Assembly: GCA_963699545.1 (NCBI GenBank)
Contig: CAVOUE010000004.1
Location: 32,001-96,000 of the forward strand
DNA: 64,000 nucleotides
Source: Nitrospirota bacterium
GTDB taxonomy: Bacteria; Nitrospirota; Thermodesulfovibrionia; Thermodesulfovibrionales; UBA9159
Direction: 5' to 3'
Part shown: in pieces, positions 49,964 through 64,000 of the stretch
Position numbering within the stretch: the stretch's first letter is position 1
Layout: every line of letters starts with the position of its first letter
Position numbers and translations under genes: made by a program
The notes under the pieces: generated by a model
Seen by the model: the letters and a program-made list of their open reading frames with translations, nothing else
Databases searched by the model: none
Told to the model about the DNA's origin: nothing

Positions 49964-50731
49964 CTACGGAATCTTCAGGGTGTCAAGAATCCCGGAGAGG
50001 CTGTTCAGGGCCGGGGAATCCTGAGGGAGGGTGTATACCGGTCTGCCGTTAAGGTCATACTCGAATATAATGTCGTCCTGGGGAACGAGACCTCCCACGG
50101 TAAGGCCGTAGTCCTCGGCCAGTTTCTTCAGTTTTACGCCGTCCGACCCGGAAACCCTGTTGATGATGAGAATCCTTTTCTCTATCTCCAGTTGCAGCTC
50201 ATCCACAAGCTCGTTGATCCTCCTGGCGGTCTGCAGGCCCTTCACCGTGGGGTCGCTCACCATGAGCAGAATATCGACCTTGTGAGTGGTCCGTCTTGAC
50301 AGGTGTTCCATGCCTGCTTCATTGTCGATGATGATATAGGGATATGTTTCCGCAAGCTTGTCGGTATATTTCCTGATTATGTTGTTGGCAGCACAGTAGC
50401 ACCCCGGGCCTTCGGGCCTGCCCATCACCAGGAGGTCCACTCCTCTTGTCTCTATGACGGACTGCTGGACCTGATAATCAAAGAGCTGTTCCATGCTCAT
50501 GCCGCCCGGACGTTCTCCTCCGCTCCTCACTGCCTGGAGAGATTCCTCTCTCAGCCGGCCGATGGTAGTGTGGACCGCAATGCCCAGGGCTTCATTGAGG
50601 CACGAGTTGCTGTCAGCGTCCACCGCAAGCACGGGTCCCTTCCGCTTTTCGATGAGGTACCTCACGGTGAGGGCGGCGATGCTTGTCTTCCCGGTTCCGC
50701 CTTTTCCTGCAAGGGCAATTAAATAGGCCAT
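49964..50731 (-). CDS. cooC: CooC/AcsF-type Ni-insertion ATPase
   Basis: GKGGTGKT, GRPEGPGCYC, DNEAGMEHLSR. Confidence 0.85.
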   Translation of the reverse strand: MAYLIALAGKGGTGKTSIAALTVRYLIEKRKGPVLAVDADSNSCLNEALGIAVHTTIGRLREESLQAVRSGGERPGGMSMEQLFDYQVQQSVIETRGVDLLVMGRPEGPGCYCAANNIIRKYTDKLAETYPYIIIDNEAGMEHLSRRTTHKVDILLMVSDPTVKGLQTARRINELVDELQLEIEKRILIINRVSGSDGVKLKKLAEDYGLTVGGLVPQDDIIFEYDLNGRPVYTLPQDSPALNSLSGILDTLKIP

Positions 50732-50842
50732 TTTTAAATTATACAACAAAAGGGCATGACGTTTGTGAACAATACGAGGTGAGAAAGCGATGAAAATCTC
50801 TCTCTTGAGCCGATTAGGGAGACTTCATCCGGCGATTGTGTA

Positions 50843-51109
50843 TCACTCGAACAACCGCGTCAGCGCCACGGTCTTTTCCTCGATGCTCCTTGCGACGTCT
50901 TCCTGTTCGTTCTTCAGCTTGTGCAGCTCGTCTGCGATGTTAACGGCTGCCAGGATCGTGGCCTTCAGGGGAGTGATCGTCGGCGCGGCGTCGGAGACCT
51001 CTTTGATCTTGCCGGTCACGTAGTCTGCCAGTTGCCGGATGTATTCTTCCGACGCGTCACCTTTGATGGTATATTTCTGCCCAAGGATATACACTTCTAT
51101 CGAGCCCAT
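50843..51109 (-). CDS. zapA: Cell division protein ZapA
   Basis: V.ILGQ.Y, A.YV, ILAAVNIADE. Confidence 0.92.
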   Translation of the reverse strand: MGSIEVYILGQKYTIKGDASEEYIRQLADYVTGKIKEVSDAAPTITPLKATILAAVNIADELHKLKNEQEDVARSIEEKTVALTRLFE

Positions 51110-51112
51110 CTC

Positions 51113-51394
51113 TTATCCCACGTCCAGCGTTTCAAGTTCATTGAGGAGTTCTTCGAGCTGACCCTTCATTGCTGTCTTTTCAGACGAAAGTCTTTCCACT
51201 TCCTGATCTCTCTCGCCAAGGCGGGCCTCCAGCTCCTTGATCCTCCGCTCCAGCTGCACCTTTTCGTCCTTCAGTGCCTTTACCTTGTTTACTGCGCCCG
51301 CGATCTTTTCATCCAGGTTCTTCAGTCTGTTCAATGGCTTGTCCTCCTTCGTGATATTTGCAAAGGTTTCGTCATCAAAAAGCGTTTTCTTCAT
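51113..51394 (-). CDS. ZapB-like coiled-coil protein
   Basis: Coiled coil immediately upstream of zapA. Confidence 0.65.
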   Translation of the reverse strand: MKKTLFDDETFANITKEDKPLNRLKNLDEKIAGAVNKVKALKDEKVQLERRIKELEARLGERDQEVERLSSEKTAMKGQLEELLNELETLDVG

Positions 51395-51400
51395 AACGGT

Positions 51401-53599
51401 TCAGTTCCCTCTCTCCTGCCTGTCCCCGAGGCTCAGATAGGTGAAATACGTCAGCAATACGCGCTTCACATACGTCTTCGTCTCATCATAGGGTATATCC
51501 TCAATGAATTCATCGTGTGACCTGTACTTTCCTTCCTTTACCCATTCTCTCACCCTGTCGTGTCCGGCGTTGTAAGCGGCAAGGGCTAGGGGCAACGAGC
51601 CGAATTCCTTCAGGAGGGAGTTGAGGTAATACGCACCCACGGTGATATTTGTTCTGACATTGTAGATATCTGAAGCATCGTCGATATCCATTTTAAGATG
51701 TTTGTTGAGACTGTCAGCGGTGTGCGGCATTATCTGCATGAGGCCAAGGGCCCCGGCGATCGAACGGGCGTTGGGGTCGAAGCGGCTTTCTTCCCTCATC
51801 ACGGCAAGAAGGATAAAGGGATCAAGGGTATAGAGGTCGGATATTTCGCTCACTGTCTGCCAGTATGCGAGAGGGTAGAGGATGTCCGCGGTGTCTGTGC
51901 CGTTACTCCATTTCAATCCTCTTTCGTCAGAGAACCGTGATACCATGGTCATGGACCGTTTGTACGCTCCTGCTGCCTGCATCATACGGCACAGGAATAT
52001 GAGGACGTCAGGCTTTGTGACCCTGTTCGACATGCGAACCAGCTCGCCAACGGCATCATCTTTCATCCCCAGCTCCATCAGGATGGTGAAGCGCTCATAG
52101 AGGGGAAGGACGTCCGGGGAAAGCTGCTGCGGCTCTAAGCCCCGCCGGCCGTCATCAGGAGATAGACGGGCGGAACGTGTCCATGATGCCCTGCTCGCAG
52201 GGCGACCGCTGAAATTGTCCATATCCCTGACATATGCCAGCATCCGGTAAAAATCCTTACTGAGACCCTTGCCGTCCGGAAGCGTGGCGGCCTTGTCACC
52301 CTGGGGGCGCGGGCGTGTATCTTCCCCGCGATCTTCCGGACTGCCAGAAAGGCTTTCCTGATCACCGGACCGCTGCTTCCAGTAGGAATACCGGGAATTG
52401 GGATATTGGTCGACCAGCGTTGCCAGTATCCCGGCCGCTTTCCTGTAGTCACCGGTCCGATACGAGGACCAGGCAATGCCCCAGAGAACATCTTCAGTGA
52501 GCGAGGGGTATCTCTTTTTCACATCCTGGTAAATATCCAAGGCTTCTTCTGTCTTGCCGTCCCTCCGCTTCTTTGCCGCGTAGGCGATGAGAAGGGATCC
52601 GGCGCGCTTATCTTCCATCGACACAAGCCGTGAGACCGTTTCTCTGAATGCGCCGAGATCTCCTGCCCTGTAAAGAGAGCGAGATCCGTTGTAGAGGTCC
52701 CCGGCCTTTAAGAAAGCCTCAGCGGCCTCCTTGTATTTCTTCTGCCTGAAAAGGGCCTGAGCCAGATTCTTCAGTACCTCTTCCCTGAAAGGCTCCCCGG
52801 CTGCCGGGAGGATCTTTCTCAAAACCGCTTCCGCCCTCTTATGTTCGAAGGCCTTCATCAGATTTGATGCCTTAGCAAGCATGTCCCCCGGCGTTACGTC
52901 AGAGGGCTCCAACTCCTGATAGGCCAACTCTGAAAATGCTGAGTTGCCGGTATATATCTTAACGAACAATTTCCTTGCCCTGTCCGTCTGTCCCAGTTTC
53001 TTCAGCAACCGTGCATAGGAGAAGGTCATCTCGGCGTCATCGGCATAATCCCCGACATATGCCTCCAGGTACTTAAGCGTCTCCTCACTTTTCTGAGGCG
53101 GGAGAGGGGTCAGGGATCCGTTTCCAGGGGACTTCTGATTCTGCCGGGCTGCGTCCCTGGTGAGAAGGATAGTATCGATCTGTAATGCCCTCGCTCTTCT
53201 CTTAAGCGGTGAATCCGGATACGTTTTCAAAAGCTCTGCGATGCAACGGGAGGATTCGTCAAAGCGCTCCATTCTGTTGTATGCCTGTGCCATAAAGAAG
53301 AGGGTATAGTCACCGATGACCGGGAGTCGGGCATAGGCGGTCCGGAGGCTCTCAACCGCCTCATCATACGTTCCTTTTTCCAGTAATTCCTTTCCCTTCC
53401 TGAGGGCCGAGACGGAATCAGTCGAACTTGTGCTCCGAACGCCCGCCGGGGCGGGGGAGGGGGAAAAAAGGACGCAGATAAAAAGCGCGAAGAAAAAACA
53501 CAAAAAGGGAAGCAGGAAAGATGCCTTTTTGAACGGGTATTCTCTTGTGCGACGGTGGTATCTATATCTTTTCATGTGCATCCGCTGAAAAAAAATCAT
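51401..53599 (-). CDS. TPR-containing soluble lytic transglycosylase
   Basis: MREESRF, GALGLMQIM, AAYNAG, ET..YV. Confidence 0.92.
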   Translation of the reverse strand: MIFFQRMHMKRYRYHRRTREYPFKKASFLLPFLCFFFALFICVLFSPSPAPAGVRSTSSTDSVSALRKGKELLEKGTYDEAVESLRTAYARLPVIGDYTLFFMAQAYNRMERFDESSRCIAELLKTYPDSPLKRRARALQIDTILLTRDAARQNQKSPGNGSLTPLPPQKSEETLKYLEAYVGDYADDAEMTFSYARLLKKLGQTDRARKLFVKIYTGNSAFSELAYQELEPSDVTPGDMLAKASNLMKAFEHKRAEAVLRKILPAAGEPFREEVLKNLAQALFRQKKYKEAAEAFLKAGDLYNGSRSLYRAGDLGAFRETVSRLVSMEDKRAGSLLIAYAAKKRRDGKTEEALDIYQDVKKRYPSLTEDVLWGIAWSSYRTGDYRKAAGILATLVDQYPNSRYSYWKQRSGDQESLSGSPEDRGEDTRPRPQGDKAATLPDGKGLSKDFYRMLAYVRDMDNFSGRPASRASWTRSARLSPDDGRRGLEPQQLSPDVLPLYERFTILMELGMKDDAVGELVRMSNRVTKPDVLIFLCRMMQAAGAYKRSMTMVSRFSDERGLKWSNGTDTADILYPLAYWQTVSEISDLYTLDPFILLAVMREESRFDPNARSIAGALGLMQIMPHTADSLNKHLKMDIDDASDIYNVRTNITVGAYYLNSLLKEFGSLPLALAAYNAGHDRVREWVKEGKYRSHDEFIEDIPYDETKTYVKRVLLTYFTYLSLGDRQERGN

Positions 53600-53721
53600 T
53601 CAGAAGTCGTTTCCATTATATCAGTTACCCGTGCCGGATTCAACAGAAATAGGCACTTTGCTTATCAAGATCGTCAAGGAGGAGATTTGACGGTTCCCCT
53701 CCATACAATTTATAATCCACC

Positions 53722-54480
53722 ATGGACCGCGCCGTAAGGAGAAGGATCCGCAAGCATATTGACGCTTCTTTCGAGGACATGGAGGATCTTGTCGCCATCG
53801 AGAAAAAAGTGAGGATATCCGTGAATGGCAGAGAGATCGTCGGTCTTTTTTGCACGCCGCACATGGTAAAGGAACTCGTGGTTGGTCTTTTAATGACCGA
53901 GGGGATCATCAGGGGAAACTGGTGTGCCGACAGGATGAGCATTCTGTTCGGCGAGGAGGTCCTCGTGGACGTCCCTGCGGAAGGAGAGGTTATTACCGAA
54001 GGGAAGACCATTACCTCGGGGTGTGCGGGCGGCGTCACCTTCGAGAAGAAGATCGATGCGGGAACGATAACGGACCCTTTCACCATCGACAGGAACAGTT
54101 TGAGGTACATTTTTAGCGATTTCCAGGCGCGGTCGGAACTCTATAAGCTGACGGGTTGCGTCCACAGTGCGGCGCTTTCTGACGGGAAGGTTATCCTCTG
54201 TTTCGCCGAGGACATTGGAAGGCACAATGCAGTGGATAAGGTCATCGGTTACGCGCTCCTCGAAAATATTCCTTTTTCGGGAAAGATCCTGCTGGCCAGC
54301 GGGAGGATATCCTCAGAGATATCCTCCAAGTGTTCCCGGTGGGGCATCCCCATCCTCGCGACGCGCACGGCACCCACCAATCTCGCCGTGGAGATCGCGG
54401 AGAAGAGAGGCGTCACCGTCGTCGGGTTCGTGAGGGGCAACCGGTTCAATGTATATACACACCCGGAAAGGATAACGTAG
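53722..54480 (+). CDS. fdhD: Formate dehydrogenase accessory sulfurtransferase
   Basis: TSGC, TGCVH.AAL, EDIGRHNAVDK, SGRIS, GFVRG. Confidence 0.95.
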   Translation: MDRAVRRRIRKHIDASFEDMEDLVAIEKKVRISVNGREIVGLFCTPHMVKELVVGLLMTEGIIRGNWCADRMSILFGEEVLVDVPAEGEVITEGKTITSGCAGGVTFEKKIDAGTITDPFTIDRNSLRYIFSDFQARSELYKLTGCVHSAALSDGKVILCFAEDIGRHNAVDKVIGYALLENIPFSGKILLASGRISSEISSKCSRWGIPILATRTAPTNLAVEIAEKRGVTVVGFVRGNRFNVYTHPERIT

Positions 54481-54641
54481 AGAAGATCACCAGTCTGTCC
54501 TCCTATTTCGACAACTCGATCCCTTCTTATCTTAGCTTATTCCGTTCTTCAAAGAACCTCTGCAAATTTCGGGCAGATGAGTTATAATGATCATAGCGAC
54601 CATTATGATTGATATGGTAGAGACTTTAAGGAGGTTTCAGT

Positions 54642-54929
54642 ATGTTGAAAAAGATATCCGCGATAAAAGTCAGACAGAACCTCGGGCAGGTGATGAACGA
54701 GGTTGCTCTCAAGGAGGACGAGTATATTGTTGAAAGGGCCGGCAAACCCTTAGTGGCGATAATACCGATTGACCAGTATCAGCGCCTGAGGGGCGAGAGG
54801 GAAGATTTTTTTAGAATGGTGGGTGAAATACAGCAGGAGGCTGTTCGGTCAGACAGAAAGATTGTTGACTCGGAGATCGAAGAGGCGGTTAAGGCCTATC
54901 GGAAGTCCAAGAGCAAGACGAGGAAATGA
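54642..54929 (+). CDS. Phd/YefM family antitoxin
   Basis: RQNLGQVMNEV...YIVERAGKPLVAII. Confidence 0.88.
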   Translation: MLKKISAIKVRQNLGQVMNEVALKEDEYIVERAGKPLVAIIPIDQYQRLRGEREDFFRMVGEIQQEAVRSDRKIVDSEIEEAVKAYRKSKSKTRK

Positions 54930-55354
54930 CAAGAGTCGTCATCGACGCCAACCAGTTCGTAAGCGCCCTGCTCAAACCTGAATCCAACCCCGCCGATGTT
55001 CTTGCACTTGCGCGCCAGGGTAAGATTCAGCTGGTCATATCGCCTGAAATTGTTGATGAGATGAGGGCGGTGCTCCTCTACCCCAAAATCATGAAGCGCC
55101 ATCGCAGGACTTCAGCGCAGATCGAACTCTTTCTGAAGAGATTGCTGAAGACCGCGGCTGTCACTCATAGCGGGCCGAGGCTCGATGTTGTCAAGGACGA
55201 CCCTTCAGACAACAAATATCTGGAATGTGCTGTGGTGGGCAGGGCGGATTTCATTGTCTCAGGGGACAGTCACCTCACTGACCTGGGGACCTTCCGTGGC
55301 ATAAAGATAGTGACCCCGGCGCGTTTCCTGAGAACCATTAAAGAAATAAAGTAG
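54926..55354 (+). CDS. PIN-domain (PIN_3/VapC-like) toxin
   Basis: VVIDAN..VSAL, DPSDNKYLECA, IVSGD.HL. Confidence 0.92.
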   Translation: MTRVVIDANQFVSALLKPESNPADVLALARQGKIQLVISPEIVDEMRAVLLYPKIMKRHRRTSAQIELFLKRLLKTAAVTHSGPRLDVVKDDPSDNKYLECAVVGRADFIVSGDSHLTDLGTFRGIKIVTPARFLRTIKEIK

Positions 55355-55372
55355 CCTGTCCCCTTTTCAGTT

Positions 55373-55556
55373 CTTCCTGGCCACGTGCACGGCGCCCACC
55401 AATCTCGCCGTGGAGATCGCGGAGAAGAGAGGCGTCACCGTCGTCGGGTTCGTGAGGGGCAATCGGTTCAATGTGTATACACGTCCGGAGAGGATCGTTT
55501 AGGAGTCAAGGGCAGGACTTTTTAAGCCGCAGAGGAATCTACCTGATAACTCGCAC
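55373..55556 (+). repeat. fdhD 3'-end repeat copy 1 (about 130 bp of CDS plus about 50 bp tail)
   Basis: 55383-55502 aligns without gaps to 54361-54480, then GAGTCAAGGGCAGGAC...CCTGA tail. Confidence 0.95.
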
Positions 55557-55670
55557 GGCAGCTATCTCTCTAAATGTTTCTATGTCCGATAGTAATGCTG
55601 AGAGTCCGCAAAGGTATTCAGTCGAATCAAGGGCATTGCTTCTTTCCACCACACAAAGCATAATAAGAGC

Positions 55671-56033
55671 ATGAAAGTGGTGGAAAAAGATAAGGTCATA
55701 AGTGGGATGCTTCGCGATGAACTCAAGCGTTGTCAGGAGATGTTTGACAGACTTGAGAAGTCCGTATCTAAACTTCCGAAAGGTGTGATAAGCGAGAGGA
55801 AAAAGCGCTACAAGGATAAGGTGTATTCTTACTATTACCTGAAGTATCGTGAAGGGGAGAAAGTTATCGGCAAGCATATACCTAATAAGGAGATGCAGGA
55901 GATTTTAGAAAAGCTTGCCATGAGGAAAAAATATGAGAAGGAAATGCAGTCCTACGAAAAGAAAATTGCCTATCTGAATAAGATACTGCAAGCAGGCAGA
56001 AGAAGGGGACATGGAAGTATCGCTCACGAATAA
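55671..56033 (+). CDS. Hypothetical basic protein, partner of nucleotidyltransferase
   Basis: LPKG.I, YYYLKYREG.KV; overlaps the downstream gene. Confidence 0.75.
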   Translation: MKVVEKDKVISGMLRDELKRCQEMFDRLEKSVSKLPKGVISERKKRYKDKVYSYYYLKYREGEKVIGKHIPNKEMQEILEKLAMRKKYEKEMQSYEKKIAYLNKILQAGRRRGHGSIAHE

Positions 56034-56694
56034 GAACATTTTCCCGTCAGAAGTCCGAGAACTTTTGAGCGCATTTTCTTTGGTAGGATTCTTCAATGAA
56101 TCCCTTCTGATTGGAAGCTGGGTGATGCCCCTGTATCAGGAAGCTTTTGGCATCCCTTATGTCTTACGCACGCTGGACATAGATTTTGCGGTCAAATTTG
56201 CCCCCTTAGGCGGAGCAAAGAAAGTTGACCTCGAAAAGGTCATCACTGATCTCGGCTATATTCCTGTTGTCATGCAGTCAGGCATCCGTCGGTTTACTCA
56301 CGAAAATTTCACTGTTGAGTTCGTTGCACATCGTAAAGGTGGGCGGGATGAGCAGGTTGTACCAGTAAGAAAATGGAACATCACGGCATCACCCCTTCCT
56401 TTTGTTGATCTTCTCCTCAGCTTCCCGTTCACAGCAGATTTTGGAAACTTCAAGGTAAGGGCGCCACTACCTGAAGCCTTCTTCGTCCATAAATTGATTA
56501 CGGCCCAGAGAAGGCTGGGCGAGAGCAAGAAAGATAAGGACCTTGAGCAATGTGCCGCCATTGCCCGGCAGCTCGATACCGATCGGTTGGATTCGGTTAT
56601 AAGGTCACTGACGCTCAGTACGAAGACACGGAAAGCGCTGAGATCTTCATGCGAGGTAATCGATTTTCCTCCACAAAGGTTGGGGTTTAAGTAA
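56011..56694 (+). CDS. GSU2403-like nucleotidyltransferase-fold protein
   Basis: LIGSW, RT.DIDF, P.AF..HKL, K..KDL. Confidence 0.8.
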   Translation: MEVSLTNKNIFPSEVRELLSAFSLVGFFNESLLIGSWVMPLYQEAFGIPYVLRTLDIDFAVKFAPLGGAKKVDLEKVITDLGYIPVVMQSGIRRFTHENFTVEFVAHRKGGRDEQVVPVRKWNITASPLPFVDLLLSFPFTADFGNFKVRAPLPEAFFVHKLITAQRRLGESKKDKDLEQCAAIARQLDTDRLDSVIRSLTLSTKTRKALRSSCEVIDFPPQRLGFK

Positions 56695-56813
56695 ATATGT
56701 GGTGGAAATGATGACAGCAAAATTGTTCTCTGCGCGCGAAAAGAAGGATATAACAAAGAGCTGTCAATCCTTGGGATGTGTTTAATAACGGGATGTGTCC
56801 TAATATTTTCACG

Positions 56814-56903
56814 ACCGGTTCAATGTGTATACACACCCGGAGAGGATCGTTTAGGAGTCAAGGGCAGGACTCTTCAAGCCGCAGAGGACCCCACCTGATA
56901 ACT
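56814..56903 (+). repeat. fdhD 3'-end repeat copy 2
   Basis: ACCGGTTCAATGTGTATACACACCCGGAGAGGATCGTTTAG plus tail. Confidence 0.95.
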
Positions 56904-57065
56904 GAGACCCCGGTTATTTCAGCCAGACCGTTGATTTCTGAGAATAACTGTTATGGGAGAGGAGTCGCTTTGCTTCCCAATACCTTTCTGAAAATCGTAC
57001 GGGAGGCGACCATGCCAGCCTCGAACGATCTTGCCCTGCATCGTCCGTTGTTCTTTTTTGCTGCC

Positions 57066-57094
57066 TTGACTAATGGTAACACTTATGTTACTAT
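57066..57094 (+). promoter_or_regulatory. Sigma70 promoter with overlapping operator palindrome for the TA operon
   Basis: TTGACT-17 bp-TACTAT; GTAAC-ACTTAT-GTTAC palindrome. Confidence 0.7.
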
Positions 57095-57100
57095 TCTGAA

Positions 57101-57427
57101 ATGGAGAAAATAAAAGTAGTCGAGTATTTAGAAGATGGAGTGTCTGTTTTTGGAAAGTGGTTCTCCGGTCTTGATGCGCAGTCGGCCGCTAAGGCGGCCA
57201 CAGCTTTGTACCGACTTGAGCAAGGCAATCTCTCTAACGTGAAATCGGTAGGGCAGGGAGTTTCGGAATACAAGATTGATTTTGGGCCGGGATTCAGGAT
57301 TTATTTTGGTCGTGAGGGCAATACATTGGTTGTCCTGCTTGGAGGAGGCTCTAAGAAGACACAGAGCAGGGACATAAGAAACGCCCAAACAATGTGGGCG
57401 CGATACAAGAAGGAAAAGAGAAAGTAA
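57101..57427 (+). CDS. RelE/ParE (HigB-like addiction module killer) toxin
   Basis: K.VG.GVSE..IDFGPGFRIYF, LLGGG.K..Q..DI. Confidence 0.9.
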   Translation: MEKIKVVEYLEDGVSVFGKWFSGLDAQSAAKAATALYRLEQGNLSNVKSVGQGVSEYKIDFGPGFRIYFGREGNTLVVLLGGGSKKTQSRDIRNAQTMWARYKKEKRK

Positions 57428-57436
57428 GGAGGTACT

Positions 57437-57760
57437 ATGCCGATTACGAAACAGTTTCGCAAAACAGTTTTGAAGCGTGCCGAAAATGATGCGGAATTCC
57501 GCAGACATTTGCTGACAGAGGCGGTTAGTGAACTGATCACGGGAGATCTTAATGCTGGCAAATCAATTCTCCGTGATTATATTAATGCGACGATCACATT
57601 TGAGGGGTTAGCCAAGAAACTCAACAAATCGAGCAAGAGCGTTCATCGTATGCTTGGATCTGCGGGTAACCCGAGAGCTGAGAATATTCTGGATATCATC
57701 AAGATGCTTCAAGCGCATGAGCATGTCACACTTCAGGTAAGGGCAAAACGGGCCGCCTGA
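57437..57760 (+). CDS. HTH antitoxin of the addiction module
   Basis: LRDYINAT, RML...GNP. Confidence 0.85.
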   Translation: MPITKQFRKTVLKRAENDAEFRRHLLTEAVSELITGDLNAGKSILRDYINATITFEGLAKKLNKSSKSVHRMLGSAGNPRAENILDIIKMLQAHEHVTLQVRAKRAA

Positions 57761-57823
57761 GAGATGACTATTGAATTAATGGTAATGTTGATACTTGGTA
57801 AGAGTCCTTCCTCCTCGTCAAGT

Positions 57824-57926
57824 AGGGGCAACCGTTTCAATGTGTATACACACCCGGAGAGGATCGTTTAGGAGTCAAGGGCACGACTTTTCAAGCCGCA
57901 GAGGACTCTACCTGAAAGTCCGCACG
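57824..57926 (+). repeat. fdhD 3'-end repeat copy 3
   Basis: AGGGGCAACCGTTTCAATGTGTATACACACCCGGAGAGGATCGTTTAG plus tail. Confidence 0.95.
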
Positions 57927-58085
57927 TTTTATTGATCTCGGCGATGAGGAATGCCGGGTGAAACCTGGTGGTCCAAAGAAAGAATGAAGGTCTGCGCCCA
58001 AATGACATCAGATGACATCTTCCGTACTGAGAACTGCCTTAAACATGTCCTTGACAGCATGTGTATATTGTGATAATATACAGCA

Positions 58086-58388
58086 ATGATAGATCGGCAG
58101 CGCATCGAAGGCTTTGAATGGGATCAGGGCAATGCACGAAAGAATGAGAAGCACGGTGTTACGCAGGCAGAAGCGGAGCAGATATTTGTCAATCAACCGT
58201 TGCTGTTATTGCCCGACGAGGAACATAGCCATAGGGAGCTGCGATTTCATGCCTTGGGCAAGACAAATGAGGGACGCCTTATACACATCTCTTTCACTTT
58301 AAGGGACAATGGGACACGAATAAGAATAATTTCAGCGCGAGCTATGCATTGAAAAGAAAGGAGTATTTATGGGCAGGAGACATCTTAA
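58086..58388 (+). pseudogene. brnT: BrnT toxin with premature TGA at 58350-58352
   Basis: FEWD.GN..KN.KHGV, E.R...LG, RIISAR; read-through gives the family tail KERSIY. Confidence 0.8.
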
Positions 58389-58641
58389 ATCAATACCGAA
58401 ATTCAAGTCTGAAGCTGAAGAGCGGAAGTTTTGGGAAACTCATGACTCAACAGATTACCTGGACTGGTCGAAGGCAGAGCATGTGGGATTTCCGAATCTG
58501 AAGTTGTCCACTCAAGCAATATCTATCAGATTGCCAATTTCGCTGCTGGAACAGATAAAAATAGAGGCCAATAAACGCGATGTTCCCTATCAGTCTCTTA
58601 TCAAGGTCTGGTTGACGGAGAAGGCGCATCACAAAGCATAG
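58369..58641 (+). CDS. brnA: BrnA/CopG antitoxin
   Basis: IPKF.SE.EE..FW.THD, ISIRLP, PYQSLIK. Confidence 0.88.
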   Translation: MGRRHLKSIPKFKSEAEERKFWETHDSTDYLDWSKAEHVGFPNLKLSTQAISIRLPISLLEQIKIEANKRDVPYQSLIKVWLTEKAHHKA

Positions 58642-58891
58642 GATTCCTGTTTGCGGCTTGCTTGAGACAAAGAAGAGGACAGGCGGCTGTCCCTTTTGTC
58701 CCTTTTCTCTGCCGGGGATCGGAGAAGTCGTTTCACTTGAGAACAAATACTATAGACGCATTGAAATTATTGGGGAATACTGGTAGAACTATAGTTGTCG
58801 AAGACGGGAATTAGGTATCAGATCGTCAGGAAAGGTTGGAGCGGAAAGAGGCTCAGATGGAAAAACGGGATGTGTCCCCAATATTTTATCA

Positions 58892-59113
58892 GGATTCGGT
58901 TATAAAGTCACTGACGCTCAGTACGAAGACACGGAAAGCGCTGAGATCTTCATGCGAGGTAATCGATTTTCCTCCACAAAGATTAGGGTTGAAGTAACTA
59001 TGTGGTGGAAATGATGAAAGCAAAATTGTTCTCTGCGCGCGAAAAGAAGGATCTAACAAAGAGCTGTCAATCCTTGGGATGTGTTTAATAACGGGATGTG
59101 TCCCTAATATTTT
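58892..59113 (+). repeat. About 220-bp diverged duplicate of 56589-56809 (3' end of nucleotidyltransferase gene plus downstream DNA)
   Basis: Near-identical sequence with scattered substitutions. Confidence 0.95.
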
Positions 59114-59191
59114 ATGTGTACACACACCCGGAGAGGATCGTTTAGGAGTCAAGGGCAGGACTTTTCAAGCCGCAGAGGACTCCACCTGATA
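59114..59191 (+). repeat. fdhD 3'-end repeat copy 4
   Basis: ATGTGTACACACACCCGGAGAGGATCGTTTAG plus tail. Confidence 0.95.
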
Positions 59192-59430
59192 CTCGACACC
59201 ACAGACAATCTCGCCAAGAGTGTTGAGTTCCAAAAAAAACTGTTACATTCAAGGTCCTCTATTCCCCCCACGCTAAGATTAAAGACCTGACCCTCTCTCC
59301 TCTCTCTCAATAGACGGGCGTCCTACCTGTCGGTAGAGTAGAGAAGTGGAAATGTTGACAGAATGAGGGCCGTTGCCGTTCCCTTTCCGAACAACACTTG
59401 GCTTGTCATTGCAGAAATTAAAGGACTCTT

Positions 59431-60342
59431 TCAGGGGTTGACCTCCAGCAATAGTTTCAGTTGCTCAAGTATTCCCGCTGCGATAAGACTGCCTGCGGTA
59501 CCCTCTAGAATGCTCCTGATGGTATGTAGGCTCTCCATGATAATCTTCGTCTTAGGTTTCGGAGAGTTCGCCTGCGTTTCAGCCGTGGCAATCTCAGCAG
59601 AGAGTTCGTTTCTTATCTCAGGGGCCAGGTTCAGGCCGGCGACCGTCCTTTTTATCTCCTTCAAAACCGACAAGACCTTCGCCACGTCGAGCTCGTTGAC
59701 GGTCATCGTCTGCGAGGAATTCCGAGTGCCTTGCTGAAGCTGAGAATGCATCATGCTCCCTATGTAGGTCTGTATATGGTAAACATTTGACGCCGCAACA
59801 CGTTGTTCTTCCTTCGTGAAGGTCAAGTCTTCTCCAAGGATGCCATCTTGTTCCAACTTCAATGCCCATTTCAGAACCGCATTTCGTACGGCATCAATTA
59901 TCTTGGCAAGATCTGTAACGCTGATTTGAAGCACTGGCTGTACAGAAGCCCCACCCATTGCAGACCTCAGCGACTCCTCCATCTTCTTCTCAAATTCAGT
60001 CCAGATGACGGTCTCTGCATTTGCTTCTTTTTGTAGGCTGGCTATCTCCGAGATCGGCTGGTTAAAATTCATCGTGGATATTTTCTCAGCTTTTCCCGGG
60101 TCAGGAATCCTCACGGGTACGAGACCCTGAACTCGGTCCAGACACTTCAGAGAGCCTATGACCTTGCGATAGTGAGGTATTTTGTTGTCTTTTTTGTATC
60201 CGTTCAACTCAAGTTCGATCCATTCTTGAAACTCCTGTACCCCGATCTTCGTCGCAACGGCGAGCGCCTTTCGGAGAAGATCTGTAACCGGCACCGTCGA
60301 ATCTATCGCTTCTTTCTGTAGCTCCAGAACCAATGAAGACAT
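59431..60342 (-). CDS. AbiTii-domain protein, copy 1
   Basis: SLVLELQ..A.D....TDLLRKAL.VA.K, W...ELNGY, IP.YR, W.LKLE.DGI.GE. Confidence 0.8.
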   Translation of the reverse strand: MSSLVLELQKEAIDSTVPVTDLLRKALAVATKIGVQEFQEWIELELNGYKKDNKIPHYRKVIGSLKCLDRVQGLVPVRIPDPGKAEKISTMNFNQPISEIASLQKEANAETVIWTEFEKKMEESLRSAMGGASVQPVLQISVTDLAKIIDAVRNAVLKWALKLEQDGILGEDLTFTKEEQRVAASNVYHIQTYIGSMMHSQLQQGTRNSSQTMTVNELDVAKVLSVLKEIKRTVAGLNLAPEIRNELSAEIATAETQANSPKPKTKIIMESLHTIRSILEGTAGSLIAAGILEQLKLLLEVNP

Positions 60343-60838
60343 TCCTATGCCTGCCCCTTCATTTTCTCGATGATCTTCATGGTCTCCACTCTGACGGTGC
60401 AGACCCGTCGGGGGTGACGGATTTTCCGTTTGTCCCAAGCAGGGAGATTTCGGTCACGAGTTCGAGTCTTTCTTATGGGCGTATTTGTTCAAGAGATTGT
60501 AGGATGCATTTCTGACCGTGGTCTCGTTCCTTGATCCTCCGAATTGGTGGATTCGGTCGAGCTTGGCATAATACTGATTGATGAGCTGAATAGACAACGA
60601 CTATCTTTTCTCCCTTTTCATATGCAACAACGTAGTCACTCAAAATTGTACTACAAAGGGAATAGGACATTCCATATTTTTCAGGACATTCAAGCATGGG
60701 GACCTTGGGTGTGGTTCTCGATATTAAAGGTGAGCTTTTTAGGGCTGATTAAGTTCTTCTTGAGTGAAGTCTGAAGACCTGACCATCAGGCGTCTCCTTA
60801 AGGGGATCGGCGGAAGACGACGGCTGCCCGTTCTATCG

Positions 60839-61732
60839 TCACAAGAGACAGTTCAATTTCGCCAGCAGCCCTGAGGCTATCAGACTGCCCGCGGTGCCTT
60901 CCAGAATGTTCCTGACTGTGTGGAGGCTTTCCCTGATGATCCTATACTTGGGCTTCGGGGACTTCGCCTGCGTTTCCGCCGTGGCGATCTCGGCGTCAAG
61001 CTCGTCCTTCGTCTCGCGGGGCAGGTTAATATCCGCCACGGCTTTCTTGATCTCGTCCAGGACCGACAGGACTTTCGAAACGTCCAGTTCATTGACGGTC
61101 ATCGACTGGCTGCTGTCGCGGGTGTCCTGCTGGAGCTGAGACTGCGTCATGCTGCCGATATAGGTTCCGATGTGATAGGTTCCGGATGATGCTGCGTGCT
61201 TCTCTTTCAGCGTAAAGGTCATGTTCTCCCCGGTGATGCCATCCTCTTCGAGCTTTAGCGTCCAGTTGAGGATGACGTTTCTGACTGAGTCAATTATTCC
61301 TCGCAAAACCGAAGGATCGATAATGAGGGCGGGCTTGAGGGCGGCAGCACCCTGGAGTTCGATCAGCATTTGCTCCTGGTCAGGCGGATAACTCATGACA
61401 ATGATGCTCGACTTGTCGTTTGTCAGAAGCGATTCCAGTTCTCCCACTGCTTGGCCCTGAGGATAGCATGAGACCACTTCGGCAAGCTTTGCTGGGAGAC
61501 GAAATTCAATCCAGCCGTTAAAAGGGTTCCAGCACCTTACCTGTCCCCTGACATTTCGATACTCGGGGATGGCAAGTCCCTTGCTGTATCCGCCAAGTTC
61601 CGACTCCGCCCAGAGCTGAAACTCCTTTATCCCCAACTTTCTGGCAACGACGAGCGCCTTGCGGAGAAGATCGGTGATCTGCACTTTCGAGTCGAGCGAT
61701 TCTCTTTGAAGTTCCAGTACCAGTGATCCCAT
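60839..61732 (-). CDS. AbiTii-domain protein, copy 2
   Basis: Same motifs; WNPFNGW; paralogue of 59431..60342. Confidence 0.8.
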   Translation of the reverse strand: MGSLVLELQRESLDSKVQITDLLRKALVVARKLGIKEFQLWAESELGGYSKGLAIPEYRNVRGQVRCWNPFNGWIEFRLPAKLAEVVSCYPQGQAVGELESLLTNDKSSIIVMSYPPDQEQMLIELQGAAALKPALIIDPSVLRGIIDSVRNVILNWTLKLEEDGITGENMTFTLKEKHAASSGTYHIGTYIGSMTQSQLQQDTRDSSQSMTVNELDVSKVLSVLDEIKKAVADINLPRETKDELDAEIATAETQAKSPKPKYRIIRESLHTVRNILEGTAGSLIASGLLAKLNCLL

Positions 61733-62230
61733 GTTCAATCTTACTACAAACGGGTCTTTTTCCTCTATCTCCCATTGAGTGCGCTGCAATCTTTCCGGTA
61801 TAGATGTCACCTGAAAGTCCTCACCTTAGACCAATCGCCAAGGACGTTGATTACCAGAAATAATTGTCACACTGGAGGATCCATTATGCAGCTTCTTAAT
61901 GCCTTCATAGAATCCTACTGGAATCACTCTGGAATCCCCATTGACCTTATTGTCAAGAAGGTGTAGATTTGAAATAACCATCACATCATAGGGTCATCCC
62001 ACTTATCTAAATTCTTGGAAGAACACTTTTGCTGTGCGCTGGAAGACAGATGGATTGACCAAGGAACGGAAGCGGTAGTAGAATTTGATAGATCAAAGGG
62101 GCTCTCTCACGCTCTGATCAGCATTGATGTGTAAACTTAGGGATCTGGAATAGTGTCATGAATGGGTCTTAAGGTACACGGAATCGTGGGAAGTACTAGC
62201 GACTTGATACCCTCATGGTAGGAGGACTAT

Positions 62231-64000
62231 TTGGCTGTTGACCCAATTTCTTGGGCAGTTAATTTTGGTCTAACGACACTAGCAAGAGGCACCTTTGAGG
62301 TGGCCTTTAAGAGCCTCTCTGCTAAACTTGAGGGTGCCGTAAGAGACTGGAGCAACGAACTACCTGCCGATGTCCAGTTTAATACCGAAGCGTTATTCGA
62401 TGGTCTAAGACGGGACTACGAGAAGTCAGACTTCCCTGCGCGTACAGCCCCCGGTAAGGAATTTGAAGCGTCTCGCATTCCGACGATGGACATGTGGCTT
62501 CAGGCGCTTCTTGAAAGATGGCAATTTGTGCGCAGAGGTAACAACGTACAAGAGTTCTTCAAGCAGCCAATAGATGTGGCCGAAGCTCAGCTGCGGACTC
62601 TATCTAAACGTCTTGAAACAGTTTGCGCACAGAACGAAGAGCTATTTCGGGTTACCACTTACGAACTGATATCAGCTTTGGCTGCTAAATTTGTTCAGCC
62701 AGAGCATCCGCATTTCCCAACGGCCCTTGTCGATCAGAAAATTGAGGATGAGATCAATGTATGCCGGAAGTGTCGCTTCTTCGAAGAGTTTGACACGGCT
62801 GGGTCTTCTCTGAGACTCGCAAGAAGTCTTCTGGACGGAGAACTGTCCGGCGGTACAAATGCGGCAAGGAGCCGAGCACTATCTTGGTGCGTTCGATTTT
62901 TGGCACGAATCGAAGACGTAGAAGAAGCAGAAGAGTATCTCAGAGTTGCGAAAGCATTAGGACTTTGCCCTGAAATCGAAATCGCCAATGCCTTCATCCT
63001 TTCGCAGAAGGGTAATAAGCACTCTGCTCTAAGTGCCCTGGCTGAGATCGATTTGCCAATATCTCGATCCGCGGCTTTGATGATTGTTGCGCATCACGAT
63101 GGCCCAAAGGCGGCAATTGACTGGCTTAATGCCGCAGGGATCGAAGCTGCGGACCTTGATCCTGACGGTAAATTTTTTCTCTTAGTGCGTTATCTTCAGC
63201 TTTCTCGTTGGGAGGCAGCTCTGAAATGCCTGGAGATAGTGACAGAAGATGATTTGATAGAGACACCGGTCCTCCATCGCATGATGGCAATCACACGCCT
63301 ACTACCTGCGGTCCCCGCCGAGTTTCGCGCTGTTGTGCTTAATCAGCTTCCGTTTGAAGCGGCAGACTTCCCACTTGCCTCAGACTCGGCTGCTATTGCA
63401 ACTCGCAAAGTAGCGCAACAGCACTTTGTGAATGCTGCGGAGTCAGCACGCCAGTTAAACTGTCCTGTTGCGGCAAGAATAGATGAGGAGTACGGACTTT
63501 GGCTTCAACTAAGAGATCCCGAAGAATTTGGAGAGGGAAAGAAGCATCTCGAGGCTAAGCTTCGTGATCCCGAGTCAGCTCTTCGCCTCGTTCATCTTGG
63601 CCTCCAATTTGGGATCAAGCTGGACTTGGAAGCAGTTGAAAGGGAGATTGAGCGGCAAGTTGCTCTCAATGGAGGAATGACTCGTGACGCGGCAATTGCC
63701 CGCTTTGCTTTGGCTTTTACCCAAAAGACTCCAGAGGACATTGCGAGCTATATCGCCCGGCATCGTGACGAGCTTGCCGACTACTTTGATAAGAAATCTA
63801 TGCAATTTCTTCAGATCGAGATGCTTGCTCGCGCTGAGCTGCCAGAGAGAGCGACTCAGTGTCTGGAGAGTCTTTTGCGAGATGGGCTTTCCGAAGAGGA
63901 GGAAAGTCGTCTTCGGCGAATAATTGCTGAAGCAGAAGGGACTGATCCGGTTGAGGCACGAAAAGAACAGTTTATTAATACAGACTCCTTGGGTGATCTG
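62231..64000 (+). CDS. Large helical-repeat protein, partial (at least 590 aa), not in the ORF track
   Basis: GGAGG RBS plus TTG at 62231; frame stays open to the window end (MAVDPISWAVNF...TDSLGDL). Confidence 0.8.
   Translation, partial: MAVDPISWAVNFGLTTLARGTFEVAFKSLSAKLEGAVRDWSNELPADVQFNTEALFDGLRRDYEKSDFPARTAPGKEFEASRIPTMDMWLQALLERWQFVRRGNNVQEFFKQPIDVAEAQLRTLSKRLETVCAQNEELFRVTTYELISALAAKFVQPEHPHFPTALVDQKIEDEINVCRKCRFFEEFDTAGSSLRLARSLLDGELSGGTNAARSRALSWCVRFLARIEDVEEAEEYLRVAKALGLCPEIEIANAFILSQKGNKHSALSALAEIDLPISRSAALMIVAHHDGPKAAIDWLNAAGIEAADLDPDGKFFLLVRYLQLSRWEAALKCLEIVTEDDLIETPVLHRMMAITRLLPAVPAEFRAVVLNQLPFEAADFPLASDSAAIATRKVAQQHFVNAAESARQLNCPVAARIDEEYGLWLQLRDPEEFGEGKKHLEAKLRDPESALRLVHLGLQFGIKLDLEAVEREIERQVALNGGMTRDAAIARFALAFTQKTPEDIASYIARHRDELADYFDKKSMQFLQIEMLARAELPERATQCLESLLRDGLSEEEESRLRRIIAEAEGTDPVEARKEQFINTDSLGDL

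Follow-up and report, generated by a model that had tools for sequence, protein, structure and literature searches.

Toxin-antitoxin cassettes stacked between fossil ends of fdhD in a Nitrospirota genome

We describe an array of small cassettes lying immediately downstream of the gene fdhD in a 64,000-nt stretch of a Nitrospirota genome (hereafter the window, G000:C4:32001-96000; G000 is a metagenome-assembled bin of 13 contigs, 87% complete and with 5% contamination). In this array the 3' end of fdhD recurs four times behind the intact gene, each time as a 5'-truncated fossil placed after cassette DNA, and the cassettes carry, in order, a Phd-PIN, a nucleotidyltransferase (NTase), a RelE-HTH and a BrnTA pair. 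According to the reading that we favor, to which we assign a probability of roughly 0.45, the array was built up through successive additive recombination events that used the conserved gene end as their anchor and needed no dedicated integrase.

The array lies between two core genes. fdhD and a sigma-54 response-regulator gene are convergent, and in G000 their ends are 15.5 kb apart. In 16 of the 20 fdhD loci compared in relatives, the convergent regulator gene ends 11-312 nt past fdhD, two loci having other neighbors and two being cut by contig ends; in G001, which together with G002 represents the congeners (the wider sets comprise the family's 18 other genomes and 201 from the order, G000 included), the spacer between fdhD and the regulator gene measures 113 nt. 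Judged from these sequences, the array is the gene-proximal part of a 15.5-kb accessory island set in a core-gene spacer of roughly 100 nt, and the congener G001 has the empty site, an outcome of comparing fdhD-downstream regions that agrees with the gain of cassettes proposed in the first-pass annotation. In the island the four toxin-antitoxin units come first, then the two AbiTii genes, a TPR-GreAB-C-PIN system and lastly a PIN/RHH pair; no recombinase gene, integrase remnants included, was found among its open reading frames (ORFs). The core genes have a GC content of 0.50-0.56, which falls to 0.44-0.48 within the array.

The repeated fdhD end and the cassettes between its copies

The gene fdhD has orthologues in 40 of 41 relatives. 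Its intact copy and the repeated ends are arranged as follows (window coordinates; CDS, coding sequence).

53722..54480, + strand: intact fdhD, 252 aa, ending ...THPERIT and stop (Pfam FdhD-NarQ, E 5e-68)
54353..54473, + strand: segment of the live gene repeated in copy 1 (121 nt = 55375-55495, 93%)
54481..54549, + strand: sequence that follows the live gene ('tail-B'), with no relation to the tail of the copies (sequence comparison)
55375..55502, + strand: fossil copy 1 of the fdhD 3' end, ending ERIV and stop, about 128-133 nt of CDS including the stop
55503..55540, + strand: shared 38-nt tail after copy 1
56814..56854, + strand: fossil copy 2, 41 nt including the stop
56855..56892, + strand: shared tail after copy 2
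57824..57871, + strand: fossil copy 3, 48 nt
57872..57909, + strand: shared tail after copy 3
59114..59145, + strand: fossil copy 4, 32 nt, whose junction is the copy-2 junction minus 13 nt (alignment)
59146..59183, + strand: shared tail after copy 4

The repeat is far above chance expectation: a repeat search returned a 103-nt family with four copies (55455, 56807, 57824 and 59098), 77-89% identical to the reference, and the BLAST E-values between copies range from 1e-25 to 1e-43. Together with a reading in register, these searches uphold the statement of the first-pass annotation that the fdhD 3' end recurs four times (starts 55375, 56814, 57824 and 59114) in 5'-truncated form, and that all four copies end ...PERIV, whereas the intact gene ends ...PERIT and continues into an unrelated flank. 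The tail of about 50 bp that had been attributed to each copy needs a correction: a shared tail does exist, but 38 nt are true tail and the other ~17 nt (ACCTGAWA...CAC) are the 5' end of the following cassette, because the recurrence of the NTase unit elsewhere in the genome and the contig match of the BrnTA unit, both reported below, begin exactly there.

Over the 70 nt common to all fossils (32 nt of CDS plus the 38-nt tail), the copies agree with one another at 63-67 positions and with the live end at 35-36. Between the live gene and copy 1 there are 9 differences over 121 nt, and a 68-nt identical run is enclosed by diverged sequence (random placement gives P = 0.0036); within the final 32 nt of CDS the longest identical runs of the same pair are not more than 7 nt. 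The left ends of the copies vary (-133, -48 and -41), and the block common to all four fossils contains a perfect 12-nt palindrome, TGTGTATACACA.

Copy 4 stands apart from the other three. A 212-nt NTase fragment and copy 4, with its tail and about 75 nt more, align with the 3' end of the NTase cassette, copy 2 plus tail, and the beginning of the RelE cassette; one 13-nt gap is the sole difference at the junction. The BrnTA unit meets this distal piece at its REP-hairpin end (REP, repetitive extragenic palindromic; see below). From the alignment, what lies distally in the array is a fragment of another, diverged version of it. Since copy 4 duplicates the copy-2 junction, there are three independent truncation points and not four; the four different truncation points first described are thus reduced by one, copy 4 being a diverged duplicate. 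The presence of two diverged versions of one junction in a single array shows exchange between arrays.

The cassettes and the genes that follow them are listed below.

54642..55354, + strand: Phd antitoxin 54642-54929 and PIN toxin 54926-55354 (PF02604, E 1.2e-8; PF13470, E 2.4e-25; TIGR01552, TIGR00305)
55541..56812, + strand: NTase cassette, 120-aa ORF 55671-56033 and NTP_transf_8 protein 56011-56694 (PF12281, E 2.4e-26)
56893..57823, + strand: RelE/ParE-type toxin 57101-57427 and HTH-like ORF 57437-57760 (TIGR02683, E 2.3e-29; Gp49, E 1.2e-5)
57910..58889, + strand: cassette of BrnT 58086-58352 and BrnA 58369-58641 (PF04365, E 5.7e-21; PF12441, E 6.4e-35; NF047399)
58892..59113, + strand: 3' fragment of a second NTase cassette with REP hairpin, joined to the BrnTA REP end (212 nt, 97% to 56589-56800)
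59431..61810, - strand: two tandem AbiTii/AbiTi paralogues, 59431-60438 and 60839-61810 (PF18864, E 4e-43 and 7e-41; PADLOC AbiTii)
62231..64000, + strand: start of a 1395-aa TPR/double-PIN protein continuing past the window (PF24407, E 1.2e-24; PF20698, E 3.9e-17; PF24388, E 6.5e-8)

Phd/PIN, RelE and BrnT/BrnA score above the curated cut-offs of type II toxin-antitoxin families in Pfam and NCBIfam, and the names originally given to the modules (Phd-PIN, NTase pair, RelE-HTH and BrnTA, then AbiTii) were recovered with these libraries; the RelE partner is a 107-aa ORF whose HTH match is below threshold. The NTP_transf_8 pair, with a 120-aa partner that has no family, is a candidate and not a proven toxin-antitoxin system. 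As for the limits of the cassettes, homology of the Phd-PIN unit in other metagenomes begins at 54550. The NTase cassette begins with the 5' motif ACCTGATAA... and closes with the REP hairpin GGGATGTGTCC (56790) plus AATATTTTC; the RelE cassette starts with ACCTGATAACTG; the BrnTA cassette starts with ACCTGAAAGTCC, where the contig of another metagenome begins matching exactly at 57910, and ends with a REP hairpin (58867) plus AATATTTTAT. The AbiTii segment opens with an ACCTGA motif at 59184, and the next such motif stands at 61808.

In the 18 other genomes of the family the BrnTA unit was not found, and the NTase gene pair occurs in two, at 77-78% identity and without the end motifs, a third genome having a 75-nt match only; the two NTase loci of these relatives have no flanking gene-end repeats. 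Rfam gave no match at E <= 1 in 53500-62500, and there is no tRNA or tmRNA gene in 50000-64000.

A few observations concern the neighboring genes. The two AbiTii paralogues have between them the repeats D2 and D5, which are 71-77% identical. The TPR-GreAB-C-PIN system extends from 62231 to G000:C4:100346 and comprises the 1395-aa HTH_upst_double_PIN / PIN-TPR-GreABC protein and a second protein of 645 aa with a permuted GreAB-C domain; neither has a PADLOC match. On the other side, the divergent upstream neighbor of fdhD (window 51401-53599) is a 732-aa ORF whose translation, judged by eye, resembles TPR repeats followed by a lytic transglycosylase-like C-terminus; the loci of two relatives have a long ORF on the minus strand in the corresponding position upstream of fdhD.

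Gene-end repeats and cassette ends elsewhere in the genome

The same layout occurs at other genes of G000. At the opposite border of the island, the 3' end of the regulator gene (266 nt of CDS plus a 60-nt tail, 90% identical) is repeated past the PIN/RHH (VapBC) pair, at G000:C4:100425-103332 (L001 9425-12402). On a different contig (G000:C6:15857-17984), the 3' end of a glyoxalase-family gene is present three times, around a Fic/DOC plus 68-aa unit and a HicA/HicB unit. A comparison of the genome with itself revealed five further integrase-less loci in which a gene-end repeat lies downstream of 0.8-10 kb of cargo, two of them with third-position bias and three ambiguous. Across the integrase-less loci, gene-end repeats measure 52-328 nt and share 84-94% identity. 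The layout is therefore not specific to fdhD, since it recurs at two or more other, unrelated genes of the same genome. The fdhD tail resembles the sequences flanking the regulator copies no more than shuffled sequences do. Two details of these loci may be added: the live regulator gene is read as two overlapping ORFs with one extra base, either a real frameshift or an assembly error, and a NERD-domain gene lies beyond the glyoxalase array.

The differences between fossils and live genes are mainly synonymous. Copy 1 of fdhD differs from the live gene in 6-7 synonymous versus 2 non-synonymous codons, last codon apart, with differences distributed over the three codon positions as [1,1,7] (copies 2-4 are too short, and the third-position bias was tested on copy 1 only); the regulator fossil has 16-17 synonymous versus 8 non-synonymous codons and the distribution [7,1,19], and two of the further loci give [0,0,6] (C6:86598) and [3,1,11] (C10:86813). 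Because of this prevalence, the fossils can be regarded as foreign alleles, that is, as the ends of genes that appear to have evolved under selection in another lineage rather than as decayed local duplicates; the earlier suggestion that the copies come from a different allele is thus well founded for copy 1.

A second family of signals concerns the ends of the cassettes. The NTase unit recurs at G000:C5:354850-353578 with the same ends (97.7% over 1273 nt), starting exactly at ACCTGA, and at this site the flank is common to G002 as far as ...GGTGTGC, beyond which the DNA of G002 differs; the left edge of the unit is thereby confirmed. The first 76 nt of the unit belong to a seven-member family of 76-80 nt (window 55541-55615; C5:233258, C5:308237, C5:352280, C5:354776, C3:796722 and C12:93029). 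Four members (C5:233k, C5:352k, C3:796k and C12:93k) are directly followed by the hairpin GGGATGTGTCCC and look like 'empty' units of about 110 nt, and in the NTase unit the 5' family part and the REP hairpin are split by 1.1 kb of genes. The combination of 5' family and REP was found in none of the 18 other family genomes, and the window copy has no Rfam match. The hairpin word GGGATGTGTCC occurs 33 times in the genome versus about 1.5 expected, often as inverted pairs 125-176 nt apart; in the window the hairpins stand at 56790, 58867 and 59093. Since inverted copies of it flank a Y1_Tnp gene of the RAYT (REP-associated tyrosine transposase) type at G000:C3:267479-268234, the hairpin is a REP with its RAYT. 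The 5' motif has 23 occurrences versus about 8.8 expected, and the one at 61808, between AbiTii and TPR-PIN, is without an fdhD copy. The REP hairpin closes the NTase and BrnTA units only, and no 5' hairpin was seen. Fossils also accompany the Phd-PIN unit, the PIN/RHH unit next to the regulator gene and the glyoxalase array, all of which have neither motif nor hairpin; the existence of such units indicates that the step that makes the fossils is independent of the motif and hairpin ends.

Two junctions and one variable spot deserve mention beside these data. A REP end abuts the truncated NTase gene at 58889, and in the contig of a related organism (run X3, at window 55191-55385, where 193 of 195 letters of the PIN end agree) a REP-like hairpin (…AGGATGTGTCC…) abuts an internal position of PIN, a junction which echoes the former. 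The second NTase unit lies, with DsrC-like and DUF3303-like genes, in a variable spot at G000:C5:350432-354871 (L067 433-4871), where 4.4 kb in G000, 8.7 kb in G001 and 1.1 kb in G013 separate conserved flanks.

How the array may have grown

A first question concerns the route by which such an array might have been assembled; what follows on this route, on the succession of events and on the part played by addiction is what we infer. In the serial, additive recombination that we favor, DNA of a related strain would bring in an fdhD 3' end with its short tail and a compact toxin-antitoxin cassette, and the incoming gene end would pair with the resident one. The far end would then join illegitimately or, as another possibility, a small circle made of gene end and cassette would integrate by a single crossover. 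With either join falling upstream of the resident stop codon, the gene would stay whole with the incoming end, and the resident end and its tail would be displaced downstream as a 5'-truncated fossil. Repetition of this event would yield the order Phd-PIN (the latest), NTase, RelE, BrnTA, and the NTase fragment and copy 4 would have been added when the array underwent unequal exchange with another, diverged version of itself. A double crossover replacing a resident addictive cassette would kill the recombinant, and rare additive events would survive; cassettes might thus pile up because only additive events survive addiction. Homologous exchange can start in segments such as the 68-nt block identical in the live gene and copy 1. 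This reading also draws on the empty site in relatives, the recurrence of the layout at unrelated genes, the allelic character of the fossils, the varying truncation points, the two diverged versions of one junction and the fact that no recombinase suited to the task was found in the bin. The idea, put forward in the first-pass annotation, that units integrate serially at the fdhD 3' end fits the serial array, the gene kept whole and the older ends apparently pushed downstream, and has to be widened to genes other than fdhD.

Several data weigh against this reading. No donor genome for the fdhD-end cassettes was found among the sequences searched, and a 45-aa query of the fdhD end retrieved truncated extra ends only in G000 and none in the other 200 genomes of the order, most of which are fragmented bins where repeats may be collapsed (G001 and G176 each gave two full-length matches). 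A mosaic test of the live fdhD against relatives detected no break point, the live end and copy 1 being both 81-88% identical to G001 and G002. The codon-position pattern is unbiased at C3:67121, at C12:111788 and in the glyoxalase copies. A fixed crossover site within the common block is possible, since all four fossils share the 32 nt and the tail, and an integrase acting in trans could be encoded in the part missing from the bin or have belonged to a lost element. Lastly, three cassettes have the 5' motif ACCTGAWA... and two or three the same REP end; these common ends hint at a site- or structure-specific mover, which the favored model does not need.

Related sequences are scarce outside G000. 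At the DNA level, the fdhD end matched the gene itself only in 11 of the 18 other family genomes (a match in a twelfth, G007, on another contig and with an E-value of 0.009, was not counted). The tail of the copies is present in neither of the two congeners, and an exact 21-mer of it has no match in public genome contigs and none in public metagenome contigs.

The rival that survives best, although we regard it as unlikely, is that an integrase acting in trans or since lost targets the fdhD 3' end, with an attP that mimics the gene end, and that integrase-less mini-elements of the CIME (cis-mobilizable element) type accrete there, as at fda in streptococci or at tRNA genes; each would carry just an addictive toxin-antitoxin pair, either after decay or from the outset. 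A whole gene, cargo and a partial gene-end repeat, in series, are the classical signature of such a process in the part of PMC5704250 that deals with it. The 32-nt block and tail shared by all four fossils, with the palindrome TGTGTATACACA inside, would suit a crossover site; the bin is only 87% complete; and islands with an integrase and gene- or tRNA-end repeats do exist in G000 (C5:404341-414897, with a 55-nt repeat at 100%, and C3:123592-130650, with a 49-nt repeat at 98%). However, neither an integrase nor a remnant is present in the 15.5 kb, and each of the other genes with the same layout would need a separate integrase. Moreover, the repeats of the integrase-less loci are 84-94% identical with differences of the synonymous type, versus 98-100% in the integrase-bearing islands; the homology of the fossils reaches variable points, which an attP does not require; the live gene and copy 1 have only short identical runs (up to 7 nt) in the common block; and no fdhD-end duplicate was found in the other 200 genomes of the order. 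In the bin as a whole, none of the six Phage_integrase matches lies on the contig of the window, two of them being in their own islands and the rest being Xer-like or fragments, and the genome has no serine recombinase.

An improbable alternative regards the cassettes as mobile units in themselves, delimited by a 5' site (C/T)ACCTGAWA...CAC and by a 3' REP hairpin plus AATATTTT, and moved behind gene ends by a RAYT/Y1 or Xer-type enzyme. In detail, an aberrant excision starting inside fdhD would take along a piece of the gene end, as in specialized transduction, and re-insertion would build the array. It is equally improbable, in our opinion, that the whole represents an integron-like cassette economy without an integron, in which empty cassettes of about 110 nt coexist with loaded ones (toxin-antitoxin, abortive-infection and TPR-PIN) and the fossils are flank pieces left by sloppy excision. 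These ideas draw on the NTase unit found with exactly the same ends at a second locus, where the flank shared with G002 stops at the unit; on the four of seven family members that look like empty units; on the excess of the 5' motif, including the occurrence at 61808 without an fdhD copy; on the hairpin that flanks a Y1_Tnp gene in inverted orientation (one of the two Y1_Tnp genes of the genome); and on the REP ends that abut truncated genes, at 58889 and, with a REP-like hairpin, in the PIN interior of another run. Yet the Phd-PIN, VapBC and glyoxalase units have gene-end fossils without motif and hairpin, the 5' hairpin is not evident, and neither circles nor empty-site pairs were seen. Besides, cargo transport by a RAYT is not known to us, though no literature search was aimed at it.

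It is quite improbable that the array arose by tandem duplication in situ of the fdhD end, tail and cassette, whether through slippage or through unequal exchange between sisters, with the cargo of each duplicate swapped afterwards. One partial duplicate is indeed present (the NTase fragment, copy 4 and the RelE-type cassette start), but the copies differ by 4-10%, the differences are biased toward synonymous ones where sites suffice, and the cargo is unrelated between units.

We consider it very improbable that the array is an assembly chimera, in which one-cassette variants from different strains were strung together by the assembler. The array order and the junctions are known from the metagenome assembly alone, the bin carries contamination (5%), and the contigs of the congeners break at or near the fdhD end. 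No public sequencing run contains the whole array; 16 entries contain part of it, the best share being 0.11 of the words of the stretch. Contigs of four public runs carry single cassettes at roughly 90-99% identity and with different flanks, covering Phd-PIN at about 54550-55362, NTase at 55586-56725 and BrnTA at about 57906-58870, and almost nothing of the RelE unit. Nevertheless, junctions between a cassette end and a 5'-truncated gene end cannot come from joining whole-gene variants, the copies can be told apart by their differences, and the same layout is found on three contigs.

A chromosomal integron, or an integrase-less cluster of attC sites (CALIN), is hardly credible: the compact, promoter-poor toxin-antitoxin cassettes in one orientation, separated by a repeat of ~100 nt, do recall one, but the best TIGR02249 score in the genome (70.8 bits, on another contig) is far from the integron-integrase cut-off of 265, no attC-like core pair was found on either strand in 54300-59400 (shuffle mean 0.52) with what we take to be the attC consensus, R''(RYYYAAC)...R'(GTTRRRY) on an imperfect 50-150-nt hairpin, the folding of the four repeat units does not exceed that of shuffled sequences (z from -0.67 to +1.88), and the repeat is plainly a gene end. 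In this respect the first-pass annotation, which saw no integrase or attC site in the window, was correct, and the extension of the search to the rest of the bin, which is 87% complete, added no IntI.

Known arrays and what the locus may mean

The layout has close relatives among known systems. Sequential displacement through homology-facilitated illegitimate recombination has been proposed, in the part of PMC5361080 considered here, for the effector-immunity arrays of the Vibrio cholerae type VI secretion system (T6SS) and for Rhs and contact-dependent inhibition (CDI) arrays. The T6SS, Rhs and CdiA orphan arrays described in that part have an upstream anchor, a live newcomer, displaced older 3' parts, foreign alleles and no recombinase. 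Here, too, a conserved anchor stands upstream and displaced 3' parts lie downstream, and the newest cassette would be that next to the live gene. Differently from our case, the anchor described there is a toxin gene, and what is displaced is a variable toxic tip with its immunity gene; in G000 the anchor is the end of a housekeeping gene in which only the last codon changes, the cargo consists of self-contained toxin-antitoxin operons, and several unrelated genes of one genome are affected.

The same holds for the tandem accretion of ICEs (integrative and conjugative elements), IMEs (integrative and mobilizable elements) and integrase-less CIMEs at the 3' ends of genes and tRNAs, in which toxin-antitoxin genes are frequent according to the section of PMC5704250 on these elements. 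In the ICESt1 family at fda and in IME/ICE tandems, as that section describes them, the gene end is repeated between elements and integrase-less elements are retained. Those elements require both a cognate integrase and a fixed core for crossover, and measure kilobases to tens of kilobases, whereas the units of our array span 0.9-1.4 kb, with no integrase found, varying truncation points and diverged repeats.

Islets made only of toxin-antitoxin genes between core genes are thought to spread via homologous recombination at core genes on either side, as stated in main-text passages of PMC13617665, a view with which our favored reading agrees. Similarly to our cassettes, the islets of those passages are very small, have no mobility genes and are in some cases flanked by a duplicated short site, but gene-end fossils or ordered arrays are not mentioned in them ('direct repeat' occurs 0 times and 'duplicat' twice). 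More generally, no description of toxin-antitoxin arrays separated by fossils of housekeeping-gene ends was found in the literature searched.

Integron arrays and CALINs are likewise ordered, compact, mostly one-way and rich in toxin-antitoxin genes, with the newest cassette at the entry point; the array at fdhD has no IntI and no attC, and its separator is a gene end. Composite arrays of the SCC (staphylococcal cassette chromosome) type at the 3' end of rlmH/orfX also have a gene-end repeat between cassettes, some of which are without recombinase genes; such arrays require the Ccr serine recombinases, an enzyme class not found in G000.

For these reasons we do not retain the proposal of a new integron-like mechanism aimed at fdhD: the layout exists at two or more unrelated genes, one of the copies is a secondary duplicate, and known processes can yield it. 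The array is best filed with the known displacement or accretion arrays, and its layout is more general in G000 than was first noted.

How small toxin-antitoxin and defence loci without mobility genes enter chromosomes is presented as an open question in the passages of PMC13617665. In this context, the fdhD locus is a readable record, with an empty site in a congener, an ordered stack and a fossil of the core-gene end after each cassette, and a single genome shows this record at three of its genes. If a trans-acting recombinase or a REP transposase were responsible, this would be a new system of cassette capture. If instead the additive, homology-anchored recombination proposed here is true, then the fossils would provide a plain signature by which such events could be recognized in any genome, and would also suggest that addiction makes toxin-antitoxin loci accumulate and not replace one another.

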